A stretch of 39,263 bases of DNA from a virus (taxonomy: Duplodnaviria > Heunggongvirae > Uroviricota > Caudoviricetes): positions 1 to 39,263 of the IMG/VR virus record IMGVR_UViG_2506520037_000005; one strand, given 5' to 3'. A program made the translations under genes and the position numbers. Below, piece after piece: positions 10,145 to 38,130 of the stretch. The notes beneath the pieces are model-generated. The model saw only the letters and a list, made by a program, of their open reading frames with translations, had not been told where the DNA came from and made no database searches. Positions within the stretch are counted from its first letter, which is position 1; each line of letters starts with the position of its first letter.

Positions 10145-10711
10145 TCAGGGGGATTCATTACTCTTATTTGCCGGAAATTTTCTATAAATTGTGGAAACAC
10201 CCACATCAAAAATCAGTGCAATACGCTGTCTTGATTCTCCGGCCTCGAGTAAGCGTCCAATCTGTGCCCACTGTTCGGTGGTCAACTTAGGACGGCGTCC
10301 ACCTACTCTGCCTTTGGCGCGAGCTGCAGCAAGCCCCGCCCTGGTACGTTCAACTATCAGTTCGCGTTCCATTTCAGCCAGGGCACCCATGACATGAAAA
10401 AAGAAACGGCCCATTGGGGTACTGGTATCAATACTGTCAGTCAGGCTTCGGAAATTCACACCTCGCTGGCGCAACTCTTCTATCAACGTAACAAGATGCC
10501 GCATACTGCGCCCCAACCTGTCCAGCTTCCAGACAACCAAAGTGTCACCTGCCGATAATGTCCTGAGCAGTTTTTTCAGTCCCGGTCTGTCGGACTTAGT
10601 GCCACTGATTTTGTCCTCAAAAATCCGCTCACATCCCGCGCAGTTCAGCGCATTACGTTGCAAATCGGTGTTCTGGTCATTTGTTGACACGCGTACATAG
10701 CCAATAAGCAT
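10145..10711 (-). CDS. Serine DNA invertase (Gin/Hin/Pin/Cin family)
   Basis: MLIGYVRVSTNDQNTDLQRNAL... with catalytic-serine motif and C-terminal HTH; near-collinear with Mu Gin as recalled. Real start is probably the ATG giving MLIGY (188 aa). Confidence 0.9.
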   Translation of the reverse strand: MLIGYVRVSTNDQNTDLQRNALNCAGCERIFEDKISGTKSDRPGLKKLLRTLSAGDTLVVWKLDRLGRSMRHLVTLIEELRQRGVNFRSLTDSIDTSTPMGRFFFHVMGALAEMERELIVERTRAGLAAARAKGRVGGRRPKLTTEQWAQIGRLLEAGESRQRIALIFDVGVSTIYRKFPANKSNESP

Positions 10712-10766
10712 GATCAATCCCCTGAATAAAAACCGGGGATGATGCCAGTTAGCCGTTATCTCTGCA

Positions 10767-10792
10767 TTTTCATAAACGTTGGTTTGGGAGAA
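10767..10792. other. Invertase crossover site, right (26-bp imperfect palindrome, gix/hix-like)
   Basis: TTTTCATAAACG TT GGTTTGGGAGAA; its right 14 bp are identical to the inverted copy inside gene H; lies 55 bp from the invertase start. Confidence 0.75.
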
Positions 10793-11122
10793 GCCAGATA
10801 TGTCATTCAGCGAGGAGCTAATGCCAATGGTGCATGGATACGCTGGTCAGATGGTGCAATAGAAGTATTTGGAACCGGTGGATCTAATGATAATGGACTG
10901 GCTAAAGTTGTTTACCCAATTGCACTGCCTAAACTTTCACGTTTTATCAGTATCGCGGAAAGAATAAGAACGGATTACGAGAGCACACCTAATAATGTTC
11001 ACGTTTCAATGATCGTGGATGATCAGGTAACAAATACCGGCTTTTATGCCCGCTGCCAGATGTACGACGGCAGACCATCATCAAATGCTTTTTCCTGGAG
11101 GGTTTATTGTGCGCCTGTTTAA
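10781..11122 (+). CDS. Promoterless alternative tail-fibre C-terminal segment (Sv'), expressed only after inversion
   Basis: The plus-strand ORF reads GLGE... in the same frame and from the same shared 14-bp core as the H gene; inversion would fuse the H constant part to this 113-codon segment. Confidence 0.6.
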   Translation, partial: GLGEARYVIQRGANANGAWIRWSDGAIEVFGTGGSNDNGLAKVVYPIALPKLSRFISIAERIRTDYESTPNNVHVSMIVDDQVTNTGFYARCQMYDGRPSSNAFSWRVYCAPV

Positions 11123-11141
11123 TCCAGTTACTTTGTAGTGG

Positions 11142-12398
<1,257 letters not shown>

Positions 12399-12535
12399 TG
12401 AAGTAATCCCCGGTCTTCATGACGTGACCGGGGCTATTGAATTACCGGAGGACAACTGGTTTTTTACTATGACAGAAATTCCTCAGGGCATGGAGCTAAC
12501 AATTAATGAGAAAGGCGAACCAATACTAATTGAGG

Positions 12536-13141
12536 TTAATCAGTCTCAGGGAATACAGGCCAAATAATATCAGGCGCGGTGCTGGTATCTGTTGCCGTCA
12601 CCGCGTCAGTGTAATCCAGCACAGCGTTAAGCCGGGTTGTTTCTGCCTGCGTCAGTTTCCGCCCGGCCTGTAATTTCAGCTGAATCAGACTAATGGAAGC
12701 CATTGCTGCATCAATCAGTGACTGACGCTGTGCTTCTGCCGCTTCTACTGCGGCACCGTGTTGTGCCTCAGTATCCGTCACCCATTTCTCACCATCCCAT
12801 TTATCGTATGGCGTTAATGGGGCGATAGTGGTTGTATTATCAGGGTAATTACCCGGAGCTGTGATTTCTTTTGATTCTCCTGTTGCGGTGCTAAAGACGA
12901 TTTCACCGCGATGGTCTGGCACATATTCCCATGAGTTAAAATCTGCAGAACGGCAGATTGTATAACCAGCTTTGTATGCGCCTGGAGCATCTAAACAGGA
13001 ACATGCCGGAATGCCGACACCAACGGCAAGATATTCAGTCGATATGGAAATATATTCCCGTGTTTCACCATCATAATTATAGACAGTAATATTCCCCGCC
13101 TTCGTGGCAATAAACTCGCTATTTAATACAGTGCTATCCAT
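12536..13141 (-). CDS. G: Tail fibre assembly protein (gpG/Tfa)
   Basis: 201-aa ORF immediately downstream of the tail fibre gene with 1-bp overlap. Confidence 0.8.
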   Translation of the reverse strand: MDSTVLNSEFIATKAGNITVYNYDGETREYISISTEYLAVGVGIPACSCLDAPGAYKAGYTICRSADFNSWEYVPDHRGEIVFSTATGESKEITAPGNYPDNTTTIAPLTPYDKWDGEKWVTDTEAQHGAAVEAAEAQRQSLIDAAMASISLIQLKLQAGRKLTQAETTRLNAVLDYTDAVTATDTSTAPDIIWPVFPETD

Positions 13142-14655
13142 TATGCAGCCCTCACAATGTAGTTAAATGCGATGTTGCGTGGACGGACACCGAAATAAGA
13201 AGTAACACCATTCATTGTCAAATTTCCAGAGCCAAAAGCGGTAAAACCAGAACCAGCATTAACTGCCGAATCCGCGTTTCTGACAAAGTTTTTGGGAGGT
13301 GAACCGGAGACACCAGCCGAAATATCATCAGCATTACCGCCATTGCCGTGGTGGTTAGTTATCTTTGTTTCCGCCTGCGCCGTCAACAAACCTCGTCCAG
13401 AGTCAACCCCGCGCCCGTCATCCCAGCCGCGAATAAACTCACCACGTAAATCAGGCAATTTATTTGCCGGATAAGCCTTTGCCAGTTCCGGGTATTCTTC
13501 AGCAGAAAAAGCCGCGCCGTTGCATTTCAGCCAGCCTGTTGGCGGAGTGGCGGAAGGCCATGGAACAGGGACACCAACGGGTAATGCAGAGCCTTCTCCC
13601 AAACCAAGGTATGCGAGAAGACCAGCTACATCCTTTCCACTCAAATTGGTAAGCGTATTGTCCAGCGGTTGTTTACCTGCCAGCGCATTAAGCATTGTCG
13701 TGGCAAAGTTCGGATCATTCCCCAGTGCCGCCGCCAGTTCGTTCAGTGTATCCAGTGCCGCAGGTGCAGAACCCACCATTGCTGCAATCGCTGATTTCAC
13801 AAAAGCTGTAGTGGCAATCTGTGTATTGTTGACCGACTGTGCCGCAGTAGGTGCTGTTGGCGTTCCGGTGAGTGCCGGACTCGACAGCGGTGCTTTTAGT
13901 GCCAGCGCATTGTTAATGGTGGTACTGAATTTCGGGTCATTGTTAATGGCTGCGGCAATTTCTTTCAGTGTGTCCAGCGTGGCTGGCGCACCGTTAATCA
14001 GAGCAGTAATAGCGGCCTGAACAAACTCAGTGGTCGCAATCCGCGTGGTGTTATTTCCTGCTGCAGGCGTCGGCGCTTTTGGTTCTCCGGTAAATGTCGG
14101 ATTATGTTTCTGCGCATACTGGGTATGAGGATCTTGTGCGGCAATGTGGTTTCTCATCTGGTCATCCACATACAGCTTTAATTCCAGGACTTCATCATCC
14201 ACGTATTTACGGGTTGCCAGCACTACAGCAGGGTCGATTTTCAGGGTGATATTGTCCGTACTGCTGGTAATCAGCACCATGCGCACGGTCTGGGTGCGCC
14301 CGCTGCCTTCAGCCAGTTGCGGCTTATAGCTTTCCGGGCAGTTGCCCACGGCAATCAATGCCCCGGACTCATCAAACAGGCCCACTTCACGTATCCACCA
14401 ACCGCCCTCGTTTTCAGGGATCACCTGTTCAGCAATAATCTGGCTGCTGTTCTGCGGGTCGATATAAAGCATATTCAGCGCAGCCCGGCGTTTCTCATTT
14501 ACCAGTGCCGTCTGCTTTGCGTCCGGCGTTGGCAATACTCCGCCGCCATCGCCCACCGCCATATGGGTAATTTTTAGCGGCACACCGAGCGCGGCGGCGC
14601 TGGCAAGTTTCGCCGCGCCAATATCCGTCAGCAGGGTATAAAATTTTGTGCTCAT
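13141..14655 (-). CDS. H: Tail fibre protein H (constant N-terminus plus invertible variable C-terminus)
   Basis: 504-aa ORF with repeated alanine-rich motifs (AAAINNDPKF / AAALGNDPNF) and a WLKCNGAAFS...YPELAKAY fibre tip; a crossover site lies within it. Confidence 0.85.
   Translation of the reverse strand: MSTKFYTLLTDIGAAKLASAAALGVPLKITHMAVGDGGGVLPTPDAKQTALVNEKRRAALNMLYIDPQNSSQIIAEQVIPENEGGWWIREVGLFDESGALIAVGNCPESYKPQLAEGSGRTQTVRMVLITSSTDNITLKIDPAVVLATRKYVDDEVLELKLYVDDQMRNHIAAQDPHTQYAQKHNPTFTGEPKAPTPAAGNNTTRIATTEFVQAAITALINGAPATLDTLKEIAAAINNDPKFSTTINNALALKAPLSSPALTGTPTAPTAAQSVNNTQIATTAFVKSAIAAMVGSAPAALDTLNELAAALGNDPNFATTMLNALAGKQPLDNTLTNLSGKDVAGLLAYLGLGEGSALPVGVPVPWPSATPPTGWLKCNGAAFSAEEYPELAKAYPANKLPDLRGEFIRGWDDGRGVDSGRGLLTAQAETKITNHHGNGGNADDISAGVSGSPPKNFVRNADSAVNAGSGFTAFGSGNLTMNGVTSYFGVRPRNIAFNYIVRAA
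13594..13619. other. Invertase crossover site, left (inside gene H)
   Basis: TTCTCCCAAACC AA GGTATGCGAGAA, an inverted copy of the site at 10767-10792 with a matching central dinucleotide. Confidence 0.75.
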
Positions 14656-24076: not shown

Positions 24077-25843
24077 ATGAACACCACACTGACACCCGCA
24101 GATCTCGATCCCCGTCGGCAGGCCATGCTGCTGTACTTTCAGGGATACCGCGTAGCCCGCATTGCTGAAATGCTGGGCGAGAAAGTTGCAACCGTTCACA
24201 GCTGGAAAAAACGCGACAAGTGGGGTGACTATGGGCCGCTGGATCAGATGCAGCTCACCACCGCCGCACGCTACTGCCAGCTCATTATGAAGGAGCACAA
24301 AGAAGGGAAAGATTTCAAAGAGATTGACCTGCTGGCGCGCCAGTCGGAGCGCCATGCGCGGATCGGCAAGTTTAACAATGGCGGCAACGAAGCCGACTTA
24401 AACCCTAACGTCGCCAACCGCAACAAAGGCCCGCGCCGTCAGCCGGAAAAGAACGTTTTCACCGATGAACAGATTGAGAAGCTGGAAGAAATCTTCCATT
24501 CCTCCATGTTCAACTACCAGCGCCACTGGTGGGAAGCCGGAAAAACCAACCGCATCCGCAACCTGCTGAAGTCACGCCAGATCGGCGCGACCTTCTATTT
24601 TGCCCGTGAAGCCCTGATTGACGCCCTGCTAACCGGGCGTAACCAGATTTTCCTTTCCGCCAGCAAGGCACAGGCCCACGTCTTTAAGCAGTACATCATC
24701 GACTTCGCCAAAGAAGTGGAGGTGGAGCTGAAAGGCGATCCGATGGTGCTTCCTAACGGGGCCACGCTGTACTTCCTCGGCACCAATGCCCGCACGGCCC
24801 AGAGTTACCACGGCAACCTGTATCTGGATGAATATTTCTGGATACCGAAATTCCAGGAGCTGCGCAAAGTGGCTTCCGGTATGGCTATTCACAAGAAATG
24901 GCGACAGACCTATTTTTCCACGCCATCCAGTCTGACACACAGTGCTTATCCGTTCTGGTCCGGTGCGCTGTTCAACCGTGGGCGCAACAGAGCCGATAAG
25001 GTGGACATCGACCTGTCCCACAGCAATCTGGCCCCCGGCCTGCTGTGCGCAGACGGGCAATACCGCCAGATAGTCACCGTGGAAGATGCGGTGCGCGGCG
25101 GCTGTAACCTGTTCGACCTTGACCAGTTGCGCATGGAGTACAGCCCTGACGAATACCAGAACTTGCTGATGTGCGAGTTCGTGGACGATCTCGCGTCCGT
25201 GTTCCCGCTCAGCGAATTGCAGGCGTGCATGGTGGACAGCTGGGAAGTCTGGACCGACTTTCATGCACTGGCCCTGCGCCCGTTTGGCTGGCGCGAAGTG
25301 TGGATCGGTTATGACCCGGCAAAAGGTACGCAGAACGGCGACAGCGCCGGATGCGTGGTGGTGGCACCGCCAGCCGTGCCAGGCGGTAAGTTCCGCATTC
25401 TTGAGCGTCACCAGTGGCGCGGAATGGACTTTCGCGCCCAGGCTGACGCCATCAAAAAACTGACCGAACAGTACAACGTGACCTATATCGGCATCGACTC
25501 AACCGGCGTTGGTCACGGGGTTTACGAGAACGTGAAAGCGTTTTTTCCTGCCGTCCGGGAGTTTGTCTACAACCCCAACGTTAAAAACGCCCTGGTACTC
25601 AAGGCCTACGACATTATCAGCCACCGCCGTCTTGAGTTTGACGCCGGGCACACCGACATTGCGCAGTCATTCATGGCAATCCGTCGCGCCACCACCGCCA
25701 GCGGCAACCGCCCGACCTATGAAGCCAGCCGCAGCGAAGAAGCCAGCCATGCCGATCTGGCCTGGGCAACAATGCACGCACTGTTTAACGAACCACTGCA
25801 GGGCGAGTCCGCCAATACCAGCAATATTGTGGAGATTTTTTGA
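24077..25843 (+). CDS. P: Terminase ATPase (large) subunit P
   Basis: 588-aa ORF divergent from O; P2 gpP size and position. Confidence 0.9.
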   Translation: MNTTLTPADLDPRRQAMLLYFQGYRVARIAEMLGEKVATVHSWKKRDKWGDYGPLDQMQLTTAARYCQLIMKEHKEGKDFKEIDLLARQSERHARIGKFNNGGNEADLNPNVANRNKGPRRQPEKNVFTDEQIEKLEEIFHSSMFNYQRHWWEAGKTNRIRNLLKSRQIGATFYFAREALIDALLTGRNQIFLSASKAQAHVFKQYIIDFAKEVEVELKGDPMVLPNGATLYFLGTNARTAQSYHGNLYLDEYFWIPKFQELRKVASGMAIHKKWRQTYFSTPSSLTHSAYPFWSGALFNRGRNRADKVDIDLSHSNLAPGLLCADGQYRQIVTVEDAVRGGCNLFDLDQLRMEYSPDEYQNLLMCEFVDDLASVFPLSELQACMVDSWEVWTDFHALALRPFGWREVWIGYDPAKGTQNGDSAGCVVVAPPAVPGGKFRILERHQWRGMDFRAQADAIKKLTEQYNVTYIGIDSTGVGHGVYENVKAFFPAVREFVYNPNVKNALVLKAYDIISHRRLEFDAGHTDIAQSFMAIRRATTASGNRPTYEASRSEEASHADLAWATMHALFNEPLQGESANTSNIVEIF

Positions 25844-26868
25844 TGGGAAAGAGTAAGAAGAACCGCGCTGCGGCGACGAAACAGATCCAGCATAAAAACC
25901 AGACTTCAGCCGAAGCATTCAGCTTCGGTGATCCCGTTCCTGTTCTGGACCGCCGCGAACTGCTGGACTATGTGGAATGCGTACAGATGGACCGTTGGTA
26001 TGAGCCACCAGTGAGTTTCGACGGCCTGGCGCGAACCTTCCGCGCCGCCGTACACCACAGCTCACCGATTGCAGTAAAGTGCAACATTCTGACCAGCACC
26101 TATATCCCTCACCCGTTGCTCAGCCAGCAGGCTTTTTCACGTTTTGTGCAGGACTATCTGGTATTTGGTAATGCCTACCTGGAGAAACGCACGAACCGCT
26201 TCGGTGAAGTTATCGCCCTTGAACCTGCCCTGGCAAAATATACCCGACGCGGATTAGACCTGGATACCTACTGGTTTGTGCAATACGGTATGGCAACCCA
26301 GCCGTATCAGTTCACGAAAGGCAGCATCTTTCATCTGATGGAACCGGATATTAATCAGGAGATCTACGGCCTGCCTGGCTATCTTTCTGCTATTCCATCC
26401 GCTCTGCTCAACGAGTCCGCCACGCTGTTCCGCCGGAAGTATTACATTAACGGCAGTCATGCAGGCTTCATCATGTACATGACCGATGCCGCGCAAAACC
26501 AGGAGGATGTGAACAACCTCCGCAACGCAATGAAAAGCGCCAAAGGACCGGGTAACTTCCGCAACCTGTTTATGTACTCGCCTAACGGCAAAAAGGATGG
26601 GCTTCAGATCATTCCTCTGTCAGAAGTCGCGGCGAAGGATGAGTTTCTGAATATCAAGAACGTGAGCCGGGACGACATGATGGCGGCGCACCGCGTACCG
26701 CCGCAAATGATGGGGATTATGCCTAGCAATGTCGGGGGGTTTGGGGATGTAGAGAAAGCTAGTAAGGTATTTGTGCGGAATGAGCTTTTACCTTTGCAAA
26801 AATTGATGCAAGCGCTTAATTGTTGGCTGGATGAAAATATAATTACATTTAATAAATATATTTTGTAG
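25840..26868 (+). CDS. Q: Portal protein Q
   Basis: 342-aa ORF overlapping the P stop by 4 bp; its last ~25 codons are AT-rich, suggesting a recombination joint with the downstream cargo. Confidence 0.9.
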   Translation: MMGKSKKNRAAATKQIQHKNQTSAEAFSFGDPVPVLDRRELLDYVECVQMDRWYEPPVSFDGLARTFRAAVHHSSPIAVKCNILTSTYIPHPLLSQQAFSRFVQDYLVFGNAYLEKRTNRFGEVIALEPALAKYTRRGLDLDTYWFVQYGMATQPYQFTKGSIFHLMEPDINQEIYGLPGYLSAIPSALLNESATLFRRKYYINGSHAGFIMYMTDAAQNQEDVNNLRNAMKSAKGPGNFRNLFMYSPNGKKDGLQIIPLSEVAAKDEFLNIKNVSRDDMMAAHRVPPQMMGIMPSNVGGFGDVEKASKVFVRNELLPLQKLMQALNCWLDENIITFNKYIL

Positions 26869-26884
26869 TTCCTGTTTATAATTA

Positions 26885-26904
26885 ACGCCTGCCTGAGCAG
26901 GCGT
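26885..26904. terminator. Bidirectional hairpin between convergent Q and the DUF262 gene
   Basis: Stem acgcctgc / gcaggcgt with a 4-nt loop; T-rich on the plus side. Confidence 0.55.
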
Positions 26905-26908
26905 TCTT

Positions 26909-28690
26909 TCATTTAAAACGTGTTGCAATATCTGCTGCTTCGATAACTGTTGCTTTTACGGTATTATCGCCAGCACGATAATAAATATCCCCATCATAAC
27001 TAGAATAAGATGCTAGAAGTGGAATTGTAATAACTATAACTCCATAACCATAAAAGTCATTATAGTCAATCAAACTCACCACTTGTGATTTAAGAGGCTC
27101 ACTCAAAGCAGATTTTTTCAACTCATCGCAAAAACGTCTATAATATTCTTCCATTGATATGCCGAGTTTAATAGCTTCTCTTTTAACACCAACAACACTT
27201 CTCTCACCAACTACATGTGCATCTATATCATCAAGCTCTTTTACTCTACTTGTATCACTTGGTTTATCTGTTACACCAAGCAATAACTTACCAACTACAC
27301 CGTTCTTGTTACCTTTACCGATGTTAGCAATAGCACAAATTGTGGAGAATATTTTCTCATGAATGCCATCATCAATAGTTCGCTCTCCGCCTAACATCAA
27401 CAAACCCTGTTTCAGTTCATAATTTGCAAGCTCTATTTCAGATCTTCGTAAAATATCCTCAATATCCACCGTATTGTGAGAATTATAGATATGACTGCTA
27501 TCGGCGCTATCAATAAAGTTATCTTTAATCAAGCCTATGATAGAATTAATATTCTTTCTTCTCTCTTCCCCACCAGTAGCAGATCTTTTAGTATCTAGTC
27601 GAGTGACTATATTATTAAGATTGTCTTTTACACCTTTATAATTATTAATCTTCTTATTTTCTTTAATGAGTAATTCATGAAAAGCAATAAATAACACAGC
27701 AAATATGGCTGGGAAAGCATTTGTAGTACGTTTAGTAAAGATTAAATCCCTGAGTTTAATTTCACCGTCACTATTACATACTTTTGTTATTTCCTGGATG
27801 CAGAATTTAAACTCTTCTGCAAATTTTCCTTCACCATAAACATTAATAGCAGAGCTAATACGACTATACTCTTCATCTTCATTATTATAAATCTGATCAA
27901 GCGCATCTTTGGAACGATCTATTAACTTACCTCCAACAATACAAGCTGCTATATCTGCAATGCATTGCTCATCCATACTGTCACGAAGGTCTGTTGAACG
28001 TAAGATCCCATGTTTTACCCAAAATACTTCTTCCGACTGAATTTGGTAACCATGTTTAGTTAGTGGCAAATCAATGCTAATAGACGGCATTTGCTCTAAA
28101 AGCAATATGTCGTCAGATACATCCCCCCTGATAGAACAGGCAATATCCCTAACCATATTTGAAAATTTATTTTGTATACCAGCCTGGCGCCTTTCTTGAT
28201 CACTAAGTCTATGCCCGTATGTATTAATTCTATCAAAAACATCATTTATTTCGTTCTCAGTCGCATTACGCATAATGGACATTGCAAGAGAATAATCCAA
28301 TAACTGAGTAACCTCACGCTGACTTAAAAGATTATCAGCTTTCACTGCAACAAACTTACCTTCATCCGCTCGATTTTTCGCTGTGGGAAAAGCGTCCAGA
28401 TTAAAACGTTTTCCATCAAGTGATTCATATCCTGTTTCGATGAAAGACATTATTGCATGTAATCTTTGTAGGCCATCAATTATTTCATATGTGCCAGGAT
28501 CATTTTCCCTTTCCGCGAGAAGAACTGCAGGAATTGGATATTTTTTTTGAATGGATTCAATTAATTTTTGTTTCTCTATTGCAGTCCAAACTAATTTTCG
28601 TTGATAACGTCTATTAACAAATATCTTACCTTCAGTAAACCATGAATAAATAGTTTGTATAGAAGTTGTTTGCGGTAATAGTTCAGCCAT
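26909..28690 (-). CDS. DUF262 (ParB-like nuclease superfamily) protein, 593 aa, candidate anti-phage defence protein
   Basis: N-terminal DUF262 signature motifs (NRRYQRKLVW; IIDGLQRL, a DGQQR variant); AT-rich codon usage; lies in the Q-to-A variable region. No recognisable HNH motif in the C-terminal half. Confidence 0.7.
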   Translation of the reverse strand: MAELLPQTTSIQTIYSWFTEGKIFVNRRYQRKLVWTAIEKQKLIESIQKKYPIPAVLLAERENDPGTYEIIDGLQRLHAIMSFIETGYESLDGKRFNLDAFPTAKNRADEGKFVAVKADNLLSQREVTQLLDYSLAMSIMRNATENEINDVFDRINTYGHRLSDQERRQAGIQNKFSNMVRDIACSIRGDVSDDILLLEQMPSISIDLPLTKHGYQIQSEEVFWVKHGILRSTDLRDSMDEQCIADIAACIVGGKLIDRSKDALDQIYNNEDEEYSRISSAINVYGEGKFAEEFKFCIQEITKVCNSDGEIKLRDLIFTKRTTNAFPAIFAVLFIAFHELLIKENKKINNYKGVKDNLNNIVTRLDTKRSATGGEERRKNINSIIGLIKDNFIDSADSSHIYNSHNTVDIEDILRRSEIELANYELKQGLLMLGGERTIDDGIHEKIFSTICAIANIGKGNKNGVVGKLLLGVTDKPSDTSRVKELDDIDAHVVGERSVVGVKREAIKLGISMEEYYRRFCDELKKSALSEPLKSQVVSLIDYNDFYGYGVIVITIPLLASYSSYDGDIYYRAGDNTVKATVIEAADIATRFK

Positions 28691-28824
28691 GAAACAAATT
28701 CCTTCTTCTGGATAGAATTTTATAATATAGAAACTGAAAAGGTTAAGTTACCATCAAAAATGATGATAGCAACAAAAAGATACCATTTTGTAATTTTTTG
28801 TTCAGATTTTCATATCAGAGCGCG

Positions 28825-28843
28825 CTCGTATCCCCGCCACGCC
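28825..28843 (-). other. Candidate cos cohesive-end core (GGCGTGGCGGGGATACGAG on the minus strand)
   Basis: Resembles the P2/186 19-nt cohesive end as I recall it (GGCG[A/T]GGCGGGGAAAGCA); that recollection is itself uncertain. Confidence 0.25.
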
Positions 28844-29222
28844 TGCCCGCTTTATGCAGTGGTTTTCATGCACATGCATGACATGAGCAAAAGCCCGCCA
28901 GTTCTGGCGGATCTGAGCAAAGACGATCCTCAATCGATCATGCGATTTCATGCAGCATAGTCATGCACTGTCAAGGAAGTGAAAATCCGTATCTGAATGG
29001 CCACTTGAAAAACGGATCATACGGGTTTACAAAGATGAATGTTCGCTGTGAACGGGAAGCGGAAGTTAACTTTCAGATAACATAATCCATATGCACGAGA
29101 ACCTCTAAAATAGAATGGGACACCTAAGTGGGGTACTTACAACGATTCTTTCCATATTCACAGTTAACACTCTGTTTGGCGTATTTTTATTCAAATAGCA
29201 AACACCAATAAAAGGAGTTTCC

Positions 29223-29558
29223 ATGAACAATATTCCCCCTATACCACAGTTAGGAATTTATGTCTCAAAAATCGATCCCACCCTACGTATCACTGTAACC
29301 GATGTTGATATTGTTGATGGTGAGGATGATTCTCCTGATGATGAATTGTTTTATTTAGTCCACTGGATCGAGGGGGAAGATGAAAGTGATATGACAGCAA
29401 TGGGATTTGAGCTAGACCCAGTAGAGTGGCAGGCTTTCGTTGAATCTGAGCAATTAGTGTTTGAGCGTGATCCGTACATGGATTCAATCCCCGAAAATTC
29501 AAACTTGGCAAAGATTCGGGATTTTCTCATGAAGACTAAACAGAATGATCATTCGTAA
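29223..29558 (+). CDS. Small, strongly acidic hypothetical protein (111 aa)
   Basis: Good Shine-Dalgarno (AAAAGGAG) 7 nt upstream of the ATG; Asp/Glu-rich (DGEDDSPDDE, EGEDESD); AT-rich. Confidence 0.6.
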   Translation: MNNIPPIPQLGIYVSKIDPTLRITVTDVDIVDGEDDSPDDELFYLVHWIEGEDESDMTAMGFELDPVEWQAFVESEQLVFERDPYMDSIPENSNLAKIRDFLMKTKQNDHS

Positions 29559-29750
29559 GTGTAAGCATCCATCAGGAAAATGGTTTTGTAAGTGAATCAT
29601 CAACTTTTAGAGAGTCTCAGACACTCCCACTTCTGCTTCTGACACAAAGCGGACGATCACTTATCAAAATAACCGCCCACCTTACGCCTTATTTCACTCA
29701 TTGCCCAAACTAGCCCCCATCAGAATGAATCCTCCTGGGGGCAACATTTC

Positions 29751-29984
29751 TTAATGCAGCCAGCTGTCGTCCTCCCACACCTTCTGCATAATTTTCATCA
29801 CTTGTTTTCTTTCTTCATCCAGTTGCAGTCCGGTTAGTTCCACACCGTTAGAGCTACCTTTGCGAATGCGAATTACCGTTTTGGGATACAGGGGGCGCAG
29901 ATTGCGGTAAAGCTCGGATTCAAGTGCGTCCAAGGTAGACTGGCTAATCTTCTGCTCTTTATCGATCATTATTTCAATGCGCAT
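29751..29984 (-). CDS. DinI-family protein
   Basis: MRIEIMIDKEQKISQSTLDALESEL...WEDDSW collinear with E. coli DinI as recalled; own SD (GAGGTGA). The longer ORF-track start is unlikely. Confidence 0.8.
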   Translation of the reverse strand: MRIEIMIDKEQKISQSTLDALESELYRNLRPLYPKTVIRIRKGSSNGVELTGLQLDEERKQVMKIMQKVWEDDSWLH

Positions 29985-29994
29985 AAAAGTCACC

Positions 29995-30183
29995 TCAGCT
30001 GATGACATCCATTGAGCGGTTGTATTCGTGGCTTCTGATTTTTGCCATGAGTTCATCAGTCAATTCAGAAACCCACTGCAGAGCCAGCCCCTTCTCTTCA
30101 TCACTACACTCACTAGCCGCTACAAGCTTAAGAAAAAAATCAATGCGCTGGAGCTTCAAAGACTCCAAAAAATAGTCCTGCAT
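29995..30183 (-). CDS. Small protein (62 aa), first gene of a LexA-controlled operon; possible Tum-like antirepressor
   Basis: ORF directly downstream of a consensus LexA box and upstream of the DinI-like gene. Confidence 0.5.
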   Translation of the reverse strand: MQDYFLESLKLQRIDFFLKLVAASECSDEEKGLALQWVSELTDELMAKIRSHEYNRSMDVIS

Positions 30184-30223
30184 CTTTCCTCCTATGACAC
30201 CAAAACAATACTGTATACATAAC

Positions 30224-30243
30224 CACTGTTTATATTTACAGTA
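30224..30243. promoter_or_regulatory. LexA (SOS) box overlapping a promoter
   Basis: cACTGTTTATATTTACAGTAt matches the CTGT-N8-ACAG consensus with an AT-rich spacer; sits upstream of the minus-strand small ORF. Confidence 0.7.
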
Positions 30244-30335
30244 TATAATAATCTTACTGATGTAAAACGTTTTTTTACGTTCATCGGCCTGATATGCCTG
30301 GTATTATTAAGAGCACGAATTGTTAACCCGCGTAA

Positions 30336-32750
30336 TTAATACAGGTTCCGCCACTTATCATCTTCCTTCAGACGCTGGTTCCGATAGAAGATACGCAGGC
30401 CTGCTCCTGACGGAATACTGCCGCCGCGAAGGAGCAAATCGACTTCTTTCTCGCTGCCATCAAATCCCCTGGACTTCAGTTCATAGACGAGCTGCTGTCG
30501 CTGATGGTCTGTAATTCGCTGTTTGTAGTCTTTACGCCGTTTCGGTTTCACCTGGCGTAACCTTGCAGCCAGTTCCCGGCGCTCTTTTTTGCTCATACTG
30601 TGCAGGTAATCGTGCAACTCCTTGTCATTCATACGGGTAATATCCGTTCTGGAGTCCCCATCAGCTGATTTGTCTTTCCCTTGTTGGTTCAAATTTTCAG
30701 CAAGGGGACAGTTATTGCCACGAGTCCAAGGGGCGCAAGCGCCCTGGTCGGCTACCGCCTCCTGAACGTCAACGGCCTTACGAACCATTTTCCACTTCAC
30801 TGCATGAGTGCAGATCTTGCCCTCTGAAATGGGTGACCAGATGCCATAAATACGAATACCGTGATCGCCATAGGCAGTCGGCTCTTCGTTAATTTCATAA
30901 GCTGTTCTGATAAGGTGATATTTGCGGGGAACCAGTACGCCGCCCTGCTTCATGATGTAGGTGGCAAAACAACCAGCATCAGCAGCAGCCAGGATGGCAT
31001 CAAGACGCGGATCATCCAGTACCGGCGCACCTGCTTTTTTGTCACCCTGTTGCCTTGCCGCCTGACCAGCCAGCAATCGCAGTTCACGGTAAGCCTGGCG
31101 CCCCGGAATACCAAAGAAGCGGAACTGCTGAACACGATGCAGAGACGCCCAGGCATTAACGTATTCGGCGTTATCACGCAGGGATTTACCCGTTTCCTTG
31201 CTGATCTCGCCAGCCAGACCACGCCCGTCAATGTTCTTACTGATGTATTTTGCGATGTAGCTTGTCGGCGTTCCTTTGCGTGGGTTTATCAGCTCAGACT
31301 TAAAGCGTGGGCCCGTGTTATTGCCCAGCTCCTCGCGGTCTTCACGGATGGCAAACTTACGCAACAATGCAGTAATGGCGCGGCGGTCTTTTTTGCGCAT
31401 GAAACACATGAGATGCCAGTGCACAGTACCGTCATGGTGCGGCTCAGCCACCCGTACGCCATACCAGCGCAACCCGGTTTTGTGCATCGCCTTACGAAAT
31501 GCAGCAAACATGCCGACCAGATAATCGCTGCTTTGTCTTACCGTCGCATTTGTCCAGGTCGGGTTGGGCCTGCCGTTATTGAGCGTGGAATGGAAACGTG
31601 ACGGACATGTGATGGTGTAGAAAACGGCGCAGTCACCGCGCATTTCCGCGATAAGCTCCAGACCTTTAACGCAGGCCATCATCTCATTGCGGCGATGTGC
31701 CGGGTTGCTGCTGCTGGCGTTTACCACATCTTCCATATCCAGCGTGTCTCCGTCTTCGTTCACCAGTTCATGAGAACGGAAAAACTCCAGCGACTTGCGG
31801 CGCTGCTCACGTTTATGCATCACGGCTTCATAGCTGACATAGGGAGATGCTTTTTTGCTGACCAGACAGACAGCACGCAACTGCTCTTCCCGCCATTCGC
31901 AACGCATCTTCCACAATTTTCGATACCACCAGTCGGCGCAAAGCATACGTGCCAGCGAACCCGGTATGAGTTCATAGGGCACAGGTTTGCGGCGGTTTCT
32001 TTTCCGACGAAGTTTCTCAAACGCAGGCGGGATAACATCCAGACGCAGGGTTTCCGCTGCCACCTTTTCCCATGTCTTGCGGATTTCTTCTGGCTTTACG
32101 TCATCGTTGGTATACAAATCACCACAAGCGGCCTCAAGACACATGCTCATATGCGCAGCTACCAGGGTGGACAGGCGTTTCACCTGATCCTGACTCATTT
32201 CAGGCAGGATCAGCAGGCCCTCCAGCCCTTGATGGCTTGCCATAAAACGGAAAGAAGTAGATAGCTGACTGTCGCGTACACAATCCAGTCGCTCCAGACA
32301 TGGCTTAATCGTCTCACGCAAATAGCGGGAATAAGCCTTTGGCCTGCCCAGGCTGCTGAAGTATTCGATACGTTGCATCAGCGGCTTGCTGATGTGGGTG
32401 GGCTGGGCGCTGACGTCCGCCAGAATGACCATGTCCGGGTTAAAACGCTGCTGCTCATGCGCCAGCTTTGCCCGACTAATGAGCTTATCCTGCTCCATTT
32501 CGCGCTGGACAGGATCACGGGATTCATTAAAGAAATAACGCTCCCAGACCTGTTCACTCAATTCCTCGCGGCGCAGCTGTTCCTGCTCGTTATCGGCAGC
32601 ATACAGAGTGATCAGGTTTGAAAGCGCAGAAACCGGCGCAACTTCCGCCGGGTCCAGATAAGGGTTTATGGCCTTTTTCGGGCCGTTCCATGAAAATGCT
32701 GCAGCGGCCTCGTTAAAGCCGCTAGAGTCGCTCATATCGGCATGACTCAT
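30336..32750 (-). CDS. A: Replication initiation protein A (rolling-circle nickase)
   Basis: 804-aa ORF in the P2 gpA position, recognised as P2 A-like. Confidence 0.85.
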
Positions 32751-36678: not shown

Positions 36679-38130
36679 ATGGATATTGAGTGGAATTGGG
36701 ATCAAGATGACGAATTTCTTGGTGAAAAATTACCTGCAGATACATTGGACAGAAAAAAGTACGCAAAATATCTTTATGAAATCTGTGCTGCACGCGGTGC
36801 TAAATCCAATCTCGTAGTTAACATTAATGCGGAATGGGGGGCTGGAAAAACATATTTTACTAAACGCCTAGCCAAGACAATTTCCCACTACCATCCCACA
36901 ATATACATTGATGCTTGGAAAGAAGATTTTACTGAAGACCCATTGCTCACAGTATTTAGTGGAATTAAAGATCAATTATCTGGTCAATCTGATAGCTTTA
37001 CTGCTTTAATCAATTCAACAATTGAGAATGTCGGTCCTTTGCTAAAAACAGCGGCACCAGTTATTATTGATGGATTAATACAAAAGTTCACAGGGGTTGA
37101 CTCCTTTTCTAACCTAACTAAAGACTTATCATCTAAGCTAATAGAAATACACGCAGAAAAATCAACGAGAATAGAGACAGTAAGAAAAGGAATTAGTCGT
37201 TGGGTTGAATTCATTGGGCGAAAAGATGGAATAGATAAAGAGCTTCCATTATTTATAATAATTGATGAACTTGATAGATGTAGGCCCGATTTTTCCATTA
37301 GTCTTTTAGAAATCTCCAAGCATATTTTTAACATCCCTGGCGTAGTATTTATTATTGCCACTGACACCCAACAATTACAGCATTCAATAAAAGTTATATA
37401 TGGCACTAATTTTTCAGCAAGTCATTATCTAAGCAGGTTTTTTGACCGTCGATTCCTTCTCCCAACGCCAGAATACAAAGACTTACTATTAACAAAAACA
37501 GGTGAAAACATAATTTCGGAATTTAATTCTTTACGTGAAAAATTAATTCCATGCCCACAAGACATCACATCATTTGTTAAAAATTGTTCATCCATATTAT
37601 TATCCATAAAAATAAACATCAGAGACGCTGTAAAAATATACGAGAGGCTAATAGACATACTTATCACGTCAAATAAAACATTTGACCCCAATCTAATGTT
37701 GATATTATCTGCATTTAATTTCAAAGATCATGATGTATATGCAAAAATAAAATCAAAAGAAAAGCTAATTCCTAGTCCTCTCAACACAGAAATAGATTTA
37801 TCATTTGATTTATCTTATGAAACTACACAAGTCAAGTACTTCCAAGCTAATGGTGGTGTTTATAGTAATACGTATAAACAAAAAGAAATTTCAACAAATG
37901 TTCTATTTTACATAGAGACTGCTTGGAACACCTTAACGATAGCAAGAACCGCACCTGTTGGCACGCGACCTTACAATACTCCAGAACTTTGGATGGAAGG
38001 AGAGTTGTCTCAGGAGGAATCATTAGCGAACTTTCTCAAAATGGGATACGCCAAAAGCCGGTACAATGAAAGTGAACTAAAAATTCATCAATATTTCGAT
38101 TTAATTGAACTGAGCACAACATTTGATTGA
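36679..38130 (+). CDS. KAP-family P-loop NTPase (PifA-like), candidate phage-exclusion protein
   Basis: Walker A EWGAGKT and the KAP-type Walker B FIIIDELDRCRP; ATG follows the cI stop codon directly; AT-rich. Confidence 0.75.
   Translation: MDIEWNWDQDDEFLGEKLPADTLDRKKYAKYLYEICAARGAKSNLVVNINAEWGAGKTYFTKRLAKTISHYHPTIYIDAWKEDFTEDPLLTVFSGIKDQLSGQSDSFTALINSTIENVGPLLKTAAPVIIDGLIQKFTGVDSFSNLTKDLSSKLIEIHAEKSTRIETVRKGISRWVEFIGRKDGIDKELPLFIIIDELDRCRPDFSISLLEISKHIFNIPGVVFIIATDTQQLQHSIKVIYGTNFSASHYLSRFFDRRFLLPTPEYKDLLLTKTGENIISEFNSLREKLIPCPQDITSFVKNCSSILLSIKINIRDAVKIYERLIDILITSNKTFDPNLMLILSAFNFKDHDVYAKIKSKEKLIPSPLNTEIDLSFDLSYETTQVKYFQANGGVYSNTYKQKEISTNVLFYIETAWNTLTIARTAPVGTRPYNTPELWMEGELSQEESLANFLKMGYAKSRYNESELKIHQYFDLIELSTTFD

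Follow-up and report, generated by a model that had tools for sequence, protein, structure and literature searches.

A cargo gene on the portal-gene side of cos in a 186/Fels-2-type prophage of Escherichia coli W

Introduction

It has been known since 1996 that P2-family phages can carry cargo between cos and the portal gene Q. Dodd and Egan (1996, Virology 219:115; as relayed in PMC5694545 and PMC7826664) described retrons Ec67 and Ec86, which take the place of the DNA that separates cos from a terminator in a 186-related prophage. This cosL-Q position was called a suggested hotspot in PMC5694545. The interval between genes A and Q, which adjoins cos, was defined as a defence hotspot by Rousset et al. 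(2022, PMC9122126), who did not separate its two sides, and the definition is repeated in PMC13586616. Here, we analyzed this interval in IMG/VR record IMGVR_UViG_2506520037_000005 (Caudoviricetes; positions 1 to 39,263, the whole stretch of 39,263 nucleotides being called the window below). The window holds a P2-type prophage of Escherichia coli W in which a gene with a DUF262 domain directly follows Q. An initial annotation had found no room for cos after Q and had suggested either a cargo on the Q side of cos or a displaced or defective cos.

So far as the title of Dodd and Egan and the papers citing it describe the retron case, Ec86 (Eco1) and Ec67 occupy the same slot as the window cargo, bounded by cos and by the terminator that follows the portal gene. 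With Ec86, the prophage and the chromosomal site are also equal to those of the window, in E. coli B/BL21. The cargo differs, since the retrons comprise msr-msd, a reverse transcriptase and an effector, whereas the window has a single DUF262/Schlafen-like gene.

Three other systems are comparable. In the Pseudomonas P2-like phage phiCTX (Nakayama et al. 1999), the order is cosL, promoter, cargo, terminators and convergent Q, as in the window. In its record, cosL occupies 1-21, the promoter of ctx 281-308 and ctx itself 362-1222; this gene reads away from cos and is followed by two terminators and the convergent Q. However, the phiCTX cargo is a pore-forming toxin and that of the window a putative defence gene, the cohesive end of phiCTX has 21 nt, and its host and lineage are distant. 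In the satellite P4 (gop-beta-cII), gop/beta lie on the left arm directly after CGCGCGC and read away from cos, as the window cargo does, and the right arm is conserved with P2. P4 follows the orientation seen in the window, although it lacks a portal gene and its slot is bounded on the far side by int. The cargo of the P4 psu-int hotspot occurs in either orientation (Rousset et al. 2022, PMC9122126). In P2, the old/tin ('TO') region is a reservoir of anti-phage genes in the A-Q interval adjoining cos, like the window slot. P2 proper differs in having its cargo on the A side, about 190 bp from the core, with a Q-side gap of 169 bp.

Location and conservation of cos

We found cos at 28825-28843, beyond the cargo gene as seen from Q. 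We are highly confident that this cos is intact, that the cargo lies on its Q side and that the slot between them exchanges modules. The G-rich, cos-like motif to which the initial annotation had pointed is present at exactly these positions and has no other match in the window. The motif (GGCGTGGCGGGGATACGAG) shows the P2-family form of a G+C-rich 19-mer, GGCG(A/T)GGCGGGG followed by seven more bases, and lies between Q (25843-26868) and A (30336-32750), which is the P2-family map order. It is identical in the Felsduoviruses Fels-2, RE-2010 and SEN8 and in Yersinia phage MLG42. Compared with the core of 186 (GGCGTGGCGGGGAAAGCAT), 14 of the 19 bases match and five differ; compared with that of P2 (GGCGAGGCGGGGAAAGCAC), 13 match and six differ. 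The record of Salmonella phage SEN8 begins at this 19-mer, which its depositors labelled 'putative cos site', and the BLAST match to the right arm stops exactly at the final base of that record. A degenerate P2/186/Fels-2 core with at most three mismatches matched only once in the 39-kb window (chance expectation 0.14), and this search of the whole window revealed neither an additional nor a diverged cos close to the stop of Q. The flanks of the approximately 55-bp core of P2, 186 and P4 are also present, with GCATxAAAACC...AAAGCGGGC in the right arm and (T/C)GCGCGC, with one substitution in the heptamer, in the left arm.

The space directly after Q is indeed too small for a cos. Within 40 bp of the Q stop lie a terminator (26884-26905) and, at 26909-26911, the stop codon of the cargo gene, which is convergent with Q. 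The premise that cos of P2 lies about 100 bp beyond Q was too low, as we measured a gap from the Q stop to the core of 169 bp in P2 and 178 bp in 186, yet the argument is unaffected. In a direct comparison with the cos regions of P2, 186 and P4, the core at 28825-28843 and its flanks were homologous.

Using the core as anchor, we built a conservation profile from 66-67 non-identical cos regions, drawn from reference phages and from 80 species-representative genomes that encode a relative of the window Q. On the A side (negative positions), the mean majority-base frequency was 0.36 beyond -140, 0.71-0.75 at -120 to -41 and 0.88 at -40 to -1. It was 0.94 in the 19-nt core. On the Q side (positive positions), it was 0.8-0.9 at +1 to +7 (CGCGCGC) and about 0.33, the background level, beyond +8. 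Conservation around cos is strongly asymmetric, covering about 130 nt on the A side and 7-8 nt on the Q side. Because Q-side conservation covers only 7-8 nt, the unrelated AT-rich cargo starts about 8 nt from the cut site. The functional cos unit consists of the right arm, the core and 7-8 nt of the left arm, at about 28817-28973 (approximately 155 bp).

The right arm is presumed to be the recognition region of the terminase. It contains TGCAT/CATGCA motifs at about -124, -111, -36 and -29, with equal offsets in P2, 186, P4 and SEN8, and these are candidate terminase-binding repeats. We also observed that conservation of the right arm, at about 130 nt, reaches well past the 55-bp core given in the literature. 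A terminator-like hairpin within the arm (CCGCCAGAACTGGCGG followed by CTTTTGC) is oriented such that it would stop A-side transcription ahead of cos. An open reading frame (ORF) of 66 amino acids across cos (28760-28960) was rejected as spurious, as it has no family match and overlaps the conserved non-coding cos unit.

Exchange of cargo on the Q side

The segment from the Q stop to the cos unit is 1.95 kb long and has a G+C content of 34%, versus 50-57% in Q and P. DNA homology with BL21, Fels-2, RE-2010 and SEN8 is lost from 26774-26809 and regained at 28811-28820, i.e. 5-14 nt from the core on the Q side. The loss begins inside Q. The final ~95 nt of Q (26774-26868) have a G+C content of 29.5% and no DNA homology with these four genomes, yet the C-terminal peptide that they encode can still be aligned with all four. 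Therefore, the module seems to carry its own Q 3' end and terminator. The terminator hairpin after Q reads AACGCCTGC-CTGA-GCAGGCGTT, followed by a T-rich tail. It is the counterpart of P2 tQ and 186 tW, which are annotated at the equivalent relative place in their records, and is shared with the convergent cargo gene.

Two sister prophages showed the exchange directly. E. coli BL21(DE3) has an equivalent prophage at the equivalent chromosomal site (rybB/rcdA), with 99.7% DNA identity over 28820-30400 and identical DinI-like and hypothetical proteins. In its slot, the effector and reverse transcriptase of retron Ec86 replace the DUF262 gene, with homology breaking at about 26775 and regained at 28820. 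Conversely, E. coli UMNK88 encodes an identical DUF262 protein and shares cos up to 28967, with different genes on the A side. Therefore, cos is a fixed island between two independently assorting slots. The A-side slot has the same content in BL21(DE3) as in the window, two other genes in UMNK88 and an orf97-like gene in Fels-2. The Q-side cargo elsewhere consists of AIPR genes in Fels-2 and RE-2010 and, in SEN8, of an HNH gene and a hypothetical gene, the two lying ahead of the portal gene. Thus, the interval from cos to the terminator is replaced, and close relatives carry unrelated cargo in it, as described for the cosL-Q slot.

Upstream of the cargo gene, we found a candidate sigma-70 promoter whose placement parallels that of the annotated ctx promoter in phiCTX. 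It matches the consensus at nine of 12 positions, which is not above chance for this region in a consensus scan.

Survey of the two slots

We surveyed 65 species-representative loci of the window Q lineage that have a recognizable cos. In 54 of them, the gap between Q and cos was filled (611-3501 bp, G+C content 0.32-0.48); in the other 11, it measured 106-251 bp. The filled slots contained 99 ORFs of at least 80 amino acids, which fell into 72 unrelated protein clusters. Many alleles matched known defence families; among the clusters are AbiL, AbiU, AriA, Old, PtuA/GajA-like ATPases, AIPR, TIR, SEFIR, a cytosine methylase and others. In the 54 filled loci and in the records of SEN8, Fels-2 and RE-2010, the cargo meets cos at a common +8 boundary. 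The strand of the cargo was highly biased: 95 of the 99 ORFs, and the cargo of 50 of the 54 loci, were convergent with Q and read away from cos.

Comparatively, in 79 IMG/VR loci with a Q that shares 99% identity with that of P2, the Q-side gap was short and empty (150-199 bp) in 77. Variable DNA in these P2-proper loci lies on the A side, in 1.1-5.7 kb between cos and A, which is the old/tin position in P2. The Q-side slot is thus the main one in 186/Fels-2-type phages (54/65) and almost unused in P2 proper (2/79). We also considered the idea that cargo reads away from cos on both sides. It was rejected, since the cos-proximal ORFs on the A side were in roughly equal orientations (19 plus and 24 minus in one count, 30 plus and 24 minus in the other), without bias.

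The cargo gene

The cargo gene encodes a protein of 593 amino acids. Its N-terminus has a GmrSD_N/DUF262 domain (PF03235, 1.6e-22, residues 16-170), which is ParB/Srx-like, the middle part is helical, and the C-terminus has a weak match to SLFN_AlbA_2 (E=4e-4, below the curated cutoff). Most homologues with about 60% identity carry a precomputed PF04326 assignment. Homologues are found in Enterobacterales, Xanthomonas, Paraburkholderia, Achromobacter and cyanobacteria, with 2076 matches at E<=1e-10. This DUF262 plus AlbA_2/Schlafen-like architecture, with about 60% identity across Proteobacteria and cyanobacteria, appears to be uncharacterized.

The best PADLOC matches were NsnA and PD-T4-2_A. 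In the AlphaFold2 model (predicted local distance difference test score, pLDDT, 79), the N-terminal part matched BrxU of the GmrSD family, the best PDB match by Foldseek, and ParB/KorB; the C-terminal part matched DIP2311 (3lmm) and Schlafen N-domains. The template-modelling (TM) scores were low, as expected for a multi-domain query, and a sequence search of PDB gave only marginal matches. The N-terminal DUF262 is shared with the GmrSD/BrxU type IV enzymes. However, GmrSD enzymes carry a DUF1524 His-Me nuclease, whereas the window protein has an AlbA_2/Schlafen-like C-terminus instead. DUF1524 was absent from residues 191-593 even at E=5, the best match there being SLFN_AlbA_2. Therefore, an assignment as a GmrSD type IV restriction enzyme was rejected despite the presence of DUF262. 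From these similarities, a single-gene anti-phage function is likely. We can only infer how it might act: the ParB-like domain could sense in a nucleotide-dependent manner and act through a Schlafen-like domain that binds or cleaves nucleic acids.

Prophage identity and neighboring features

The interval 26700-29100 is found at 100% identity in E. coli W and in about a dozen further complete genomes of the species, rcdA/ybjJ adjoin the prophage in the E. coli W chromosome, and the window contains the gene of the small RNA RybB at 2700-2778 (Rfam, 105 bits). Therefore, the prophage is the P2-type prophage 'Rybb*W' of E. coli W listed by Archer et al. (PMC3032704). The RybB gene marks the chromosomal attachment side, and the last base of the window is the end of the integrase gene. 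Because of its regulatory genes (CI, CII and DinI/Tum-like) and its best phage matches (Fels-2, RE-2010, SEN8 and Klebsiella prophages), the prophage is assigned to the 186/Fels-2 branch of Peduoviridae and not to P2 proper. Gene A is the far boundary of the published A-Q hotspot. Rfam and tRNA scans gave no match in the interval from Q to cos; in the window, they matched only RybB and, in an IS3-family element, isrC. The features around cos are listed in Table 1.

Table 1. Positions and supporting evidence of features around cos in the 39,263-nt window.
Feature	Position	Strand	Evidence or remark
Gene P, terminase large subunit (ATPase/nuclease)	24077-25843	+	Pfam Terminase_6N, Terminase_6C, Terminase_5; RefSeq 'terminase ATPase subunit family protein'
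Gene Q, portal protein	25843-26868	+	Pfam Phage_portal
Q-side cargo slot	26869-28816	.	Between Q stop and cos unit; replaced by unrelated DNA in relatives
Hairpin terminator after Q	26884-26905	+	Terminator scan; 9-bp stem, 6 GC pairs, T-rich tail
Cargo gene, DUF262 (GmrSD_N)	26909-28690	-	Pfam; reads away from cos towards Q
Candidate sigma-70 promoter of cargo gene	28717-28746	-	TTAACC-18-TAAAAT; between cos and ATG at 28690
Left-arm heptamer of cos	28818-28824	-	Consensus CGCGCGC, here CGCGCTC; last conserved Q-side bases
19-nt cos core, cohesive-end sequence	28825-28843	-	GGCGTGGCGGGGATACGAG; single match in window
Conserved right arm of cos (~130 nt)	28844-28973	-	Majority-base frequency; UMNK88 homology ends at 28967
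Terminator-like hairpin in right arm	28894-28911	-	Terminator scan; conserved in Fels-2-like set
A-side cargo slot	28974-29750	.	Variable versus Fels-2, RE-2010, SEN8, UMNK88; 99.7% identical to BL21
111-aa acidic ORF in A-side slot, function unassigned	29223-29558	+	phrog_17127 match
DinI/Tum-like gene, 186 tum homologue	29751-30056	-	Pfam DinI 1.2e-22; phrog_189; 186 annotation
Gene A, rolling-circle replication endonuclease	30336-32750	-	Pfam Phage_GPA 6.5e-128

Some other features lie outside this region. An invertible tail-fibre segment occupies 10145-14655, with a serine invertase gene at 10145-10717, and 2.8 kb of it (10779-13610) are inverted relative to NC_017635 (E. coli W). The IS3-family element (orfB 11142-11888, orfA 12008-12355, Rfam isrC match 12201-12323) lies in the cassette that is silent here. 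A gene for a KAP-family P-loop nucleoside triphosphatase at about 36679-38130 (E. coli W locus 29980-31431), between the CI repressor and integrase genes, is a further accessory gene at the int-proximal minor hotspot, which is mentioned in PMC13586616.

Discussion

The positions, conservation pattern, allelic replacements and slot statistics observed here would be explained if the terminase recognized the right arm, the core and about 7 nt of the left arm. As recognition would then be limited to about 7 nt on the Q side, DNA beyond +8 would be freely replaceable, giving a slot between the cut site and the Q terminator. A module would consist of a promoter beside cos, one DUF262/Schlafen-like gene, a terminator shared with Q and a replaced Q 3' end. 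Recombination between the conserved flanks, Q on one side and the cos unit on the other, would swap modules. Once the terminase has cut, the linear chromosome in the virion would have the cargo as its leftmost gene, like ctx of phiCTX and gop/beta of P4, and the left virion end would read GGCGTGGCGGGGATACGAG-CGCGCTCTGATATG.

Under this reading, cos is real and has the cargo on its Q side, which was the first of the two possibilities raised initially. The identical core in Felsduoviruses, the conserved arm and the filled slot in 54 of 65 loci all agree with it, and phiCTX ctx and the retron Ec86 allele in BL21(DE3) are precedents. The second possibility fared less well. A displaced cos is not supported, given its normal relation to gene A and to the DinI/Tum-like gene; only the Q side is expanded. 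Almost nothing points to a defective cos, the sole oddity being the T at heptamer position +6 in place of the usual G.

The T at +6 deserves attention, since the cos could be recognizable but impaired, both by this change and by the cargo lying 8 nt from the cut, with a cryptic prophage keeping the cargo for its host. We consider this improbable. In its favour, the heptamer is CGCGCTC instead of CGCGCGC, and the IS3 element lies in the invertible tail-fibre segment. However, altered heptamers are tolerated at other loci (cgcgcat, cgcgccc, cgcgggc and cgcacgg), and cargo abutting the +8 boundary is the common state, seen in the filled loci of the survey as well as in SEN8, Fels-2 and RE-2010. 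With the invertible segment oriented as in the window, the expressed tail-fibre gene (13141-14655) and its assembly gene (12536-13141) look intact, and IS3 lies in the silent cassette. The packaging, head, lysis and tail genes carry no pseudogene flags, and the only flagged coding sequence is a truncated Fil-family gene of the early region.

It is hardly credible that the G-rich motif matches by chance, with the true packaging site lying elsewhere in the prophage or, in diverged form, directly after Q. The chance expectation of 0.14 for the degenerate 19-mer means that the core alone is not overwhelming, but the match found is exact, without mismatches, and there is no second one in the window. 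About 130 nt of its flank are conserved with 186, P2, P4 and more than 60 loci, including the placed TGCAT motifs, and the site has its place between Q and A, which holds for all P2-family genomes examined. Directly after Q, the 40 bp up to the cargo stop are taken by the hairpin terminator. A recent transposable or site-specific insertion of the DUF262 segment near cos, rather than exchange by homologous recombination at a dedicated slot, might be suspected from its AT-richness, its sharp boundaries and the close protein homologues (about 60% identity) in many unrelated bacteria. This is very unlikely. We saw no transposase, integrase or terminal repeats in 26869-28816 by reading the sequence and the ORF list, although no search for repeats was made. 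On the left, the boundary falls within Q, where the C-terminus is replaced yet homologous, and the right boundary equals the +8 position found in dozens of loci with unrelated cargo; both fit flank-mediated replacement, as do the words 'replace DNA' in the title of Dodd and Egan.

Some points weigh against an intact cos with defence cargo on its Q side. The base at +6 of the heptamer is G in more than 90% of 67 related sites and T in the window, and a quantitative packaging defect from this change is conceivable. Cleavage at 28825-28843 in this prophage, and thus its 19-nt 5' cohesive ends, is deduced by homology, namely from the annotated ends of P2, 186, PsP3 and phiCTX and from SEN8, whose cos annotation is itself only 'putative'. 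Terminase binding by the right arm is suggested by its conservation. Likewise, the defence role of the cargo is proposed from its similarities to NsnA and to the Schlafen-like fold.

Considering the asymmetry of cos, the A-Q hotspot might consist of two slots with different rules, the Q-side slot beginning 8 nt and the A-side slot about 130 nt from the cut site. The side used would depend on the lineage, and the orientation rule would hold on the Q side. We propose this tentatively, as it could almost as easily prove right as wrong. A possible reason for the orientation rule, which is more speculative, is that the right arm has a terminator shielding cos and the left arm has none. The right-arm hairpin would stop A-side transcription before cos, and with the left arm unshielded, Q-side cargo would have to read away from cos. 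The side preference of the lineages and the orientation rule are the only points here that are possibly unreported; we did not find them in the literature searched, which did not extend to older primary papers.

The finding opens no new biological question, but it has practical consequences. Annotation of 186/Fels-2-type prophages should not look for cos immediately downstream of Q, and it should treat AT-rich genes that separate Q from cos as exchangeable cargo, which very often consists of defence genes. A cos unit delimited as a right arm of about 130 nt, the 19-nt core and a left arm of 7-8 nt helps the design of cosmids and transducing particles, and also the automatic extraction of hotspot cargo on either side of cos. 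If our reading is true, Q-side cargo would be the terminal gene of the linear DNA that is injected.

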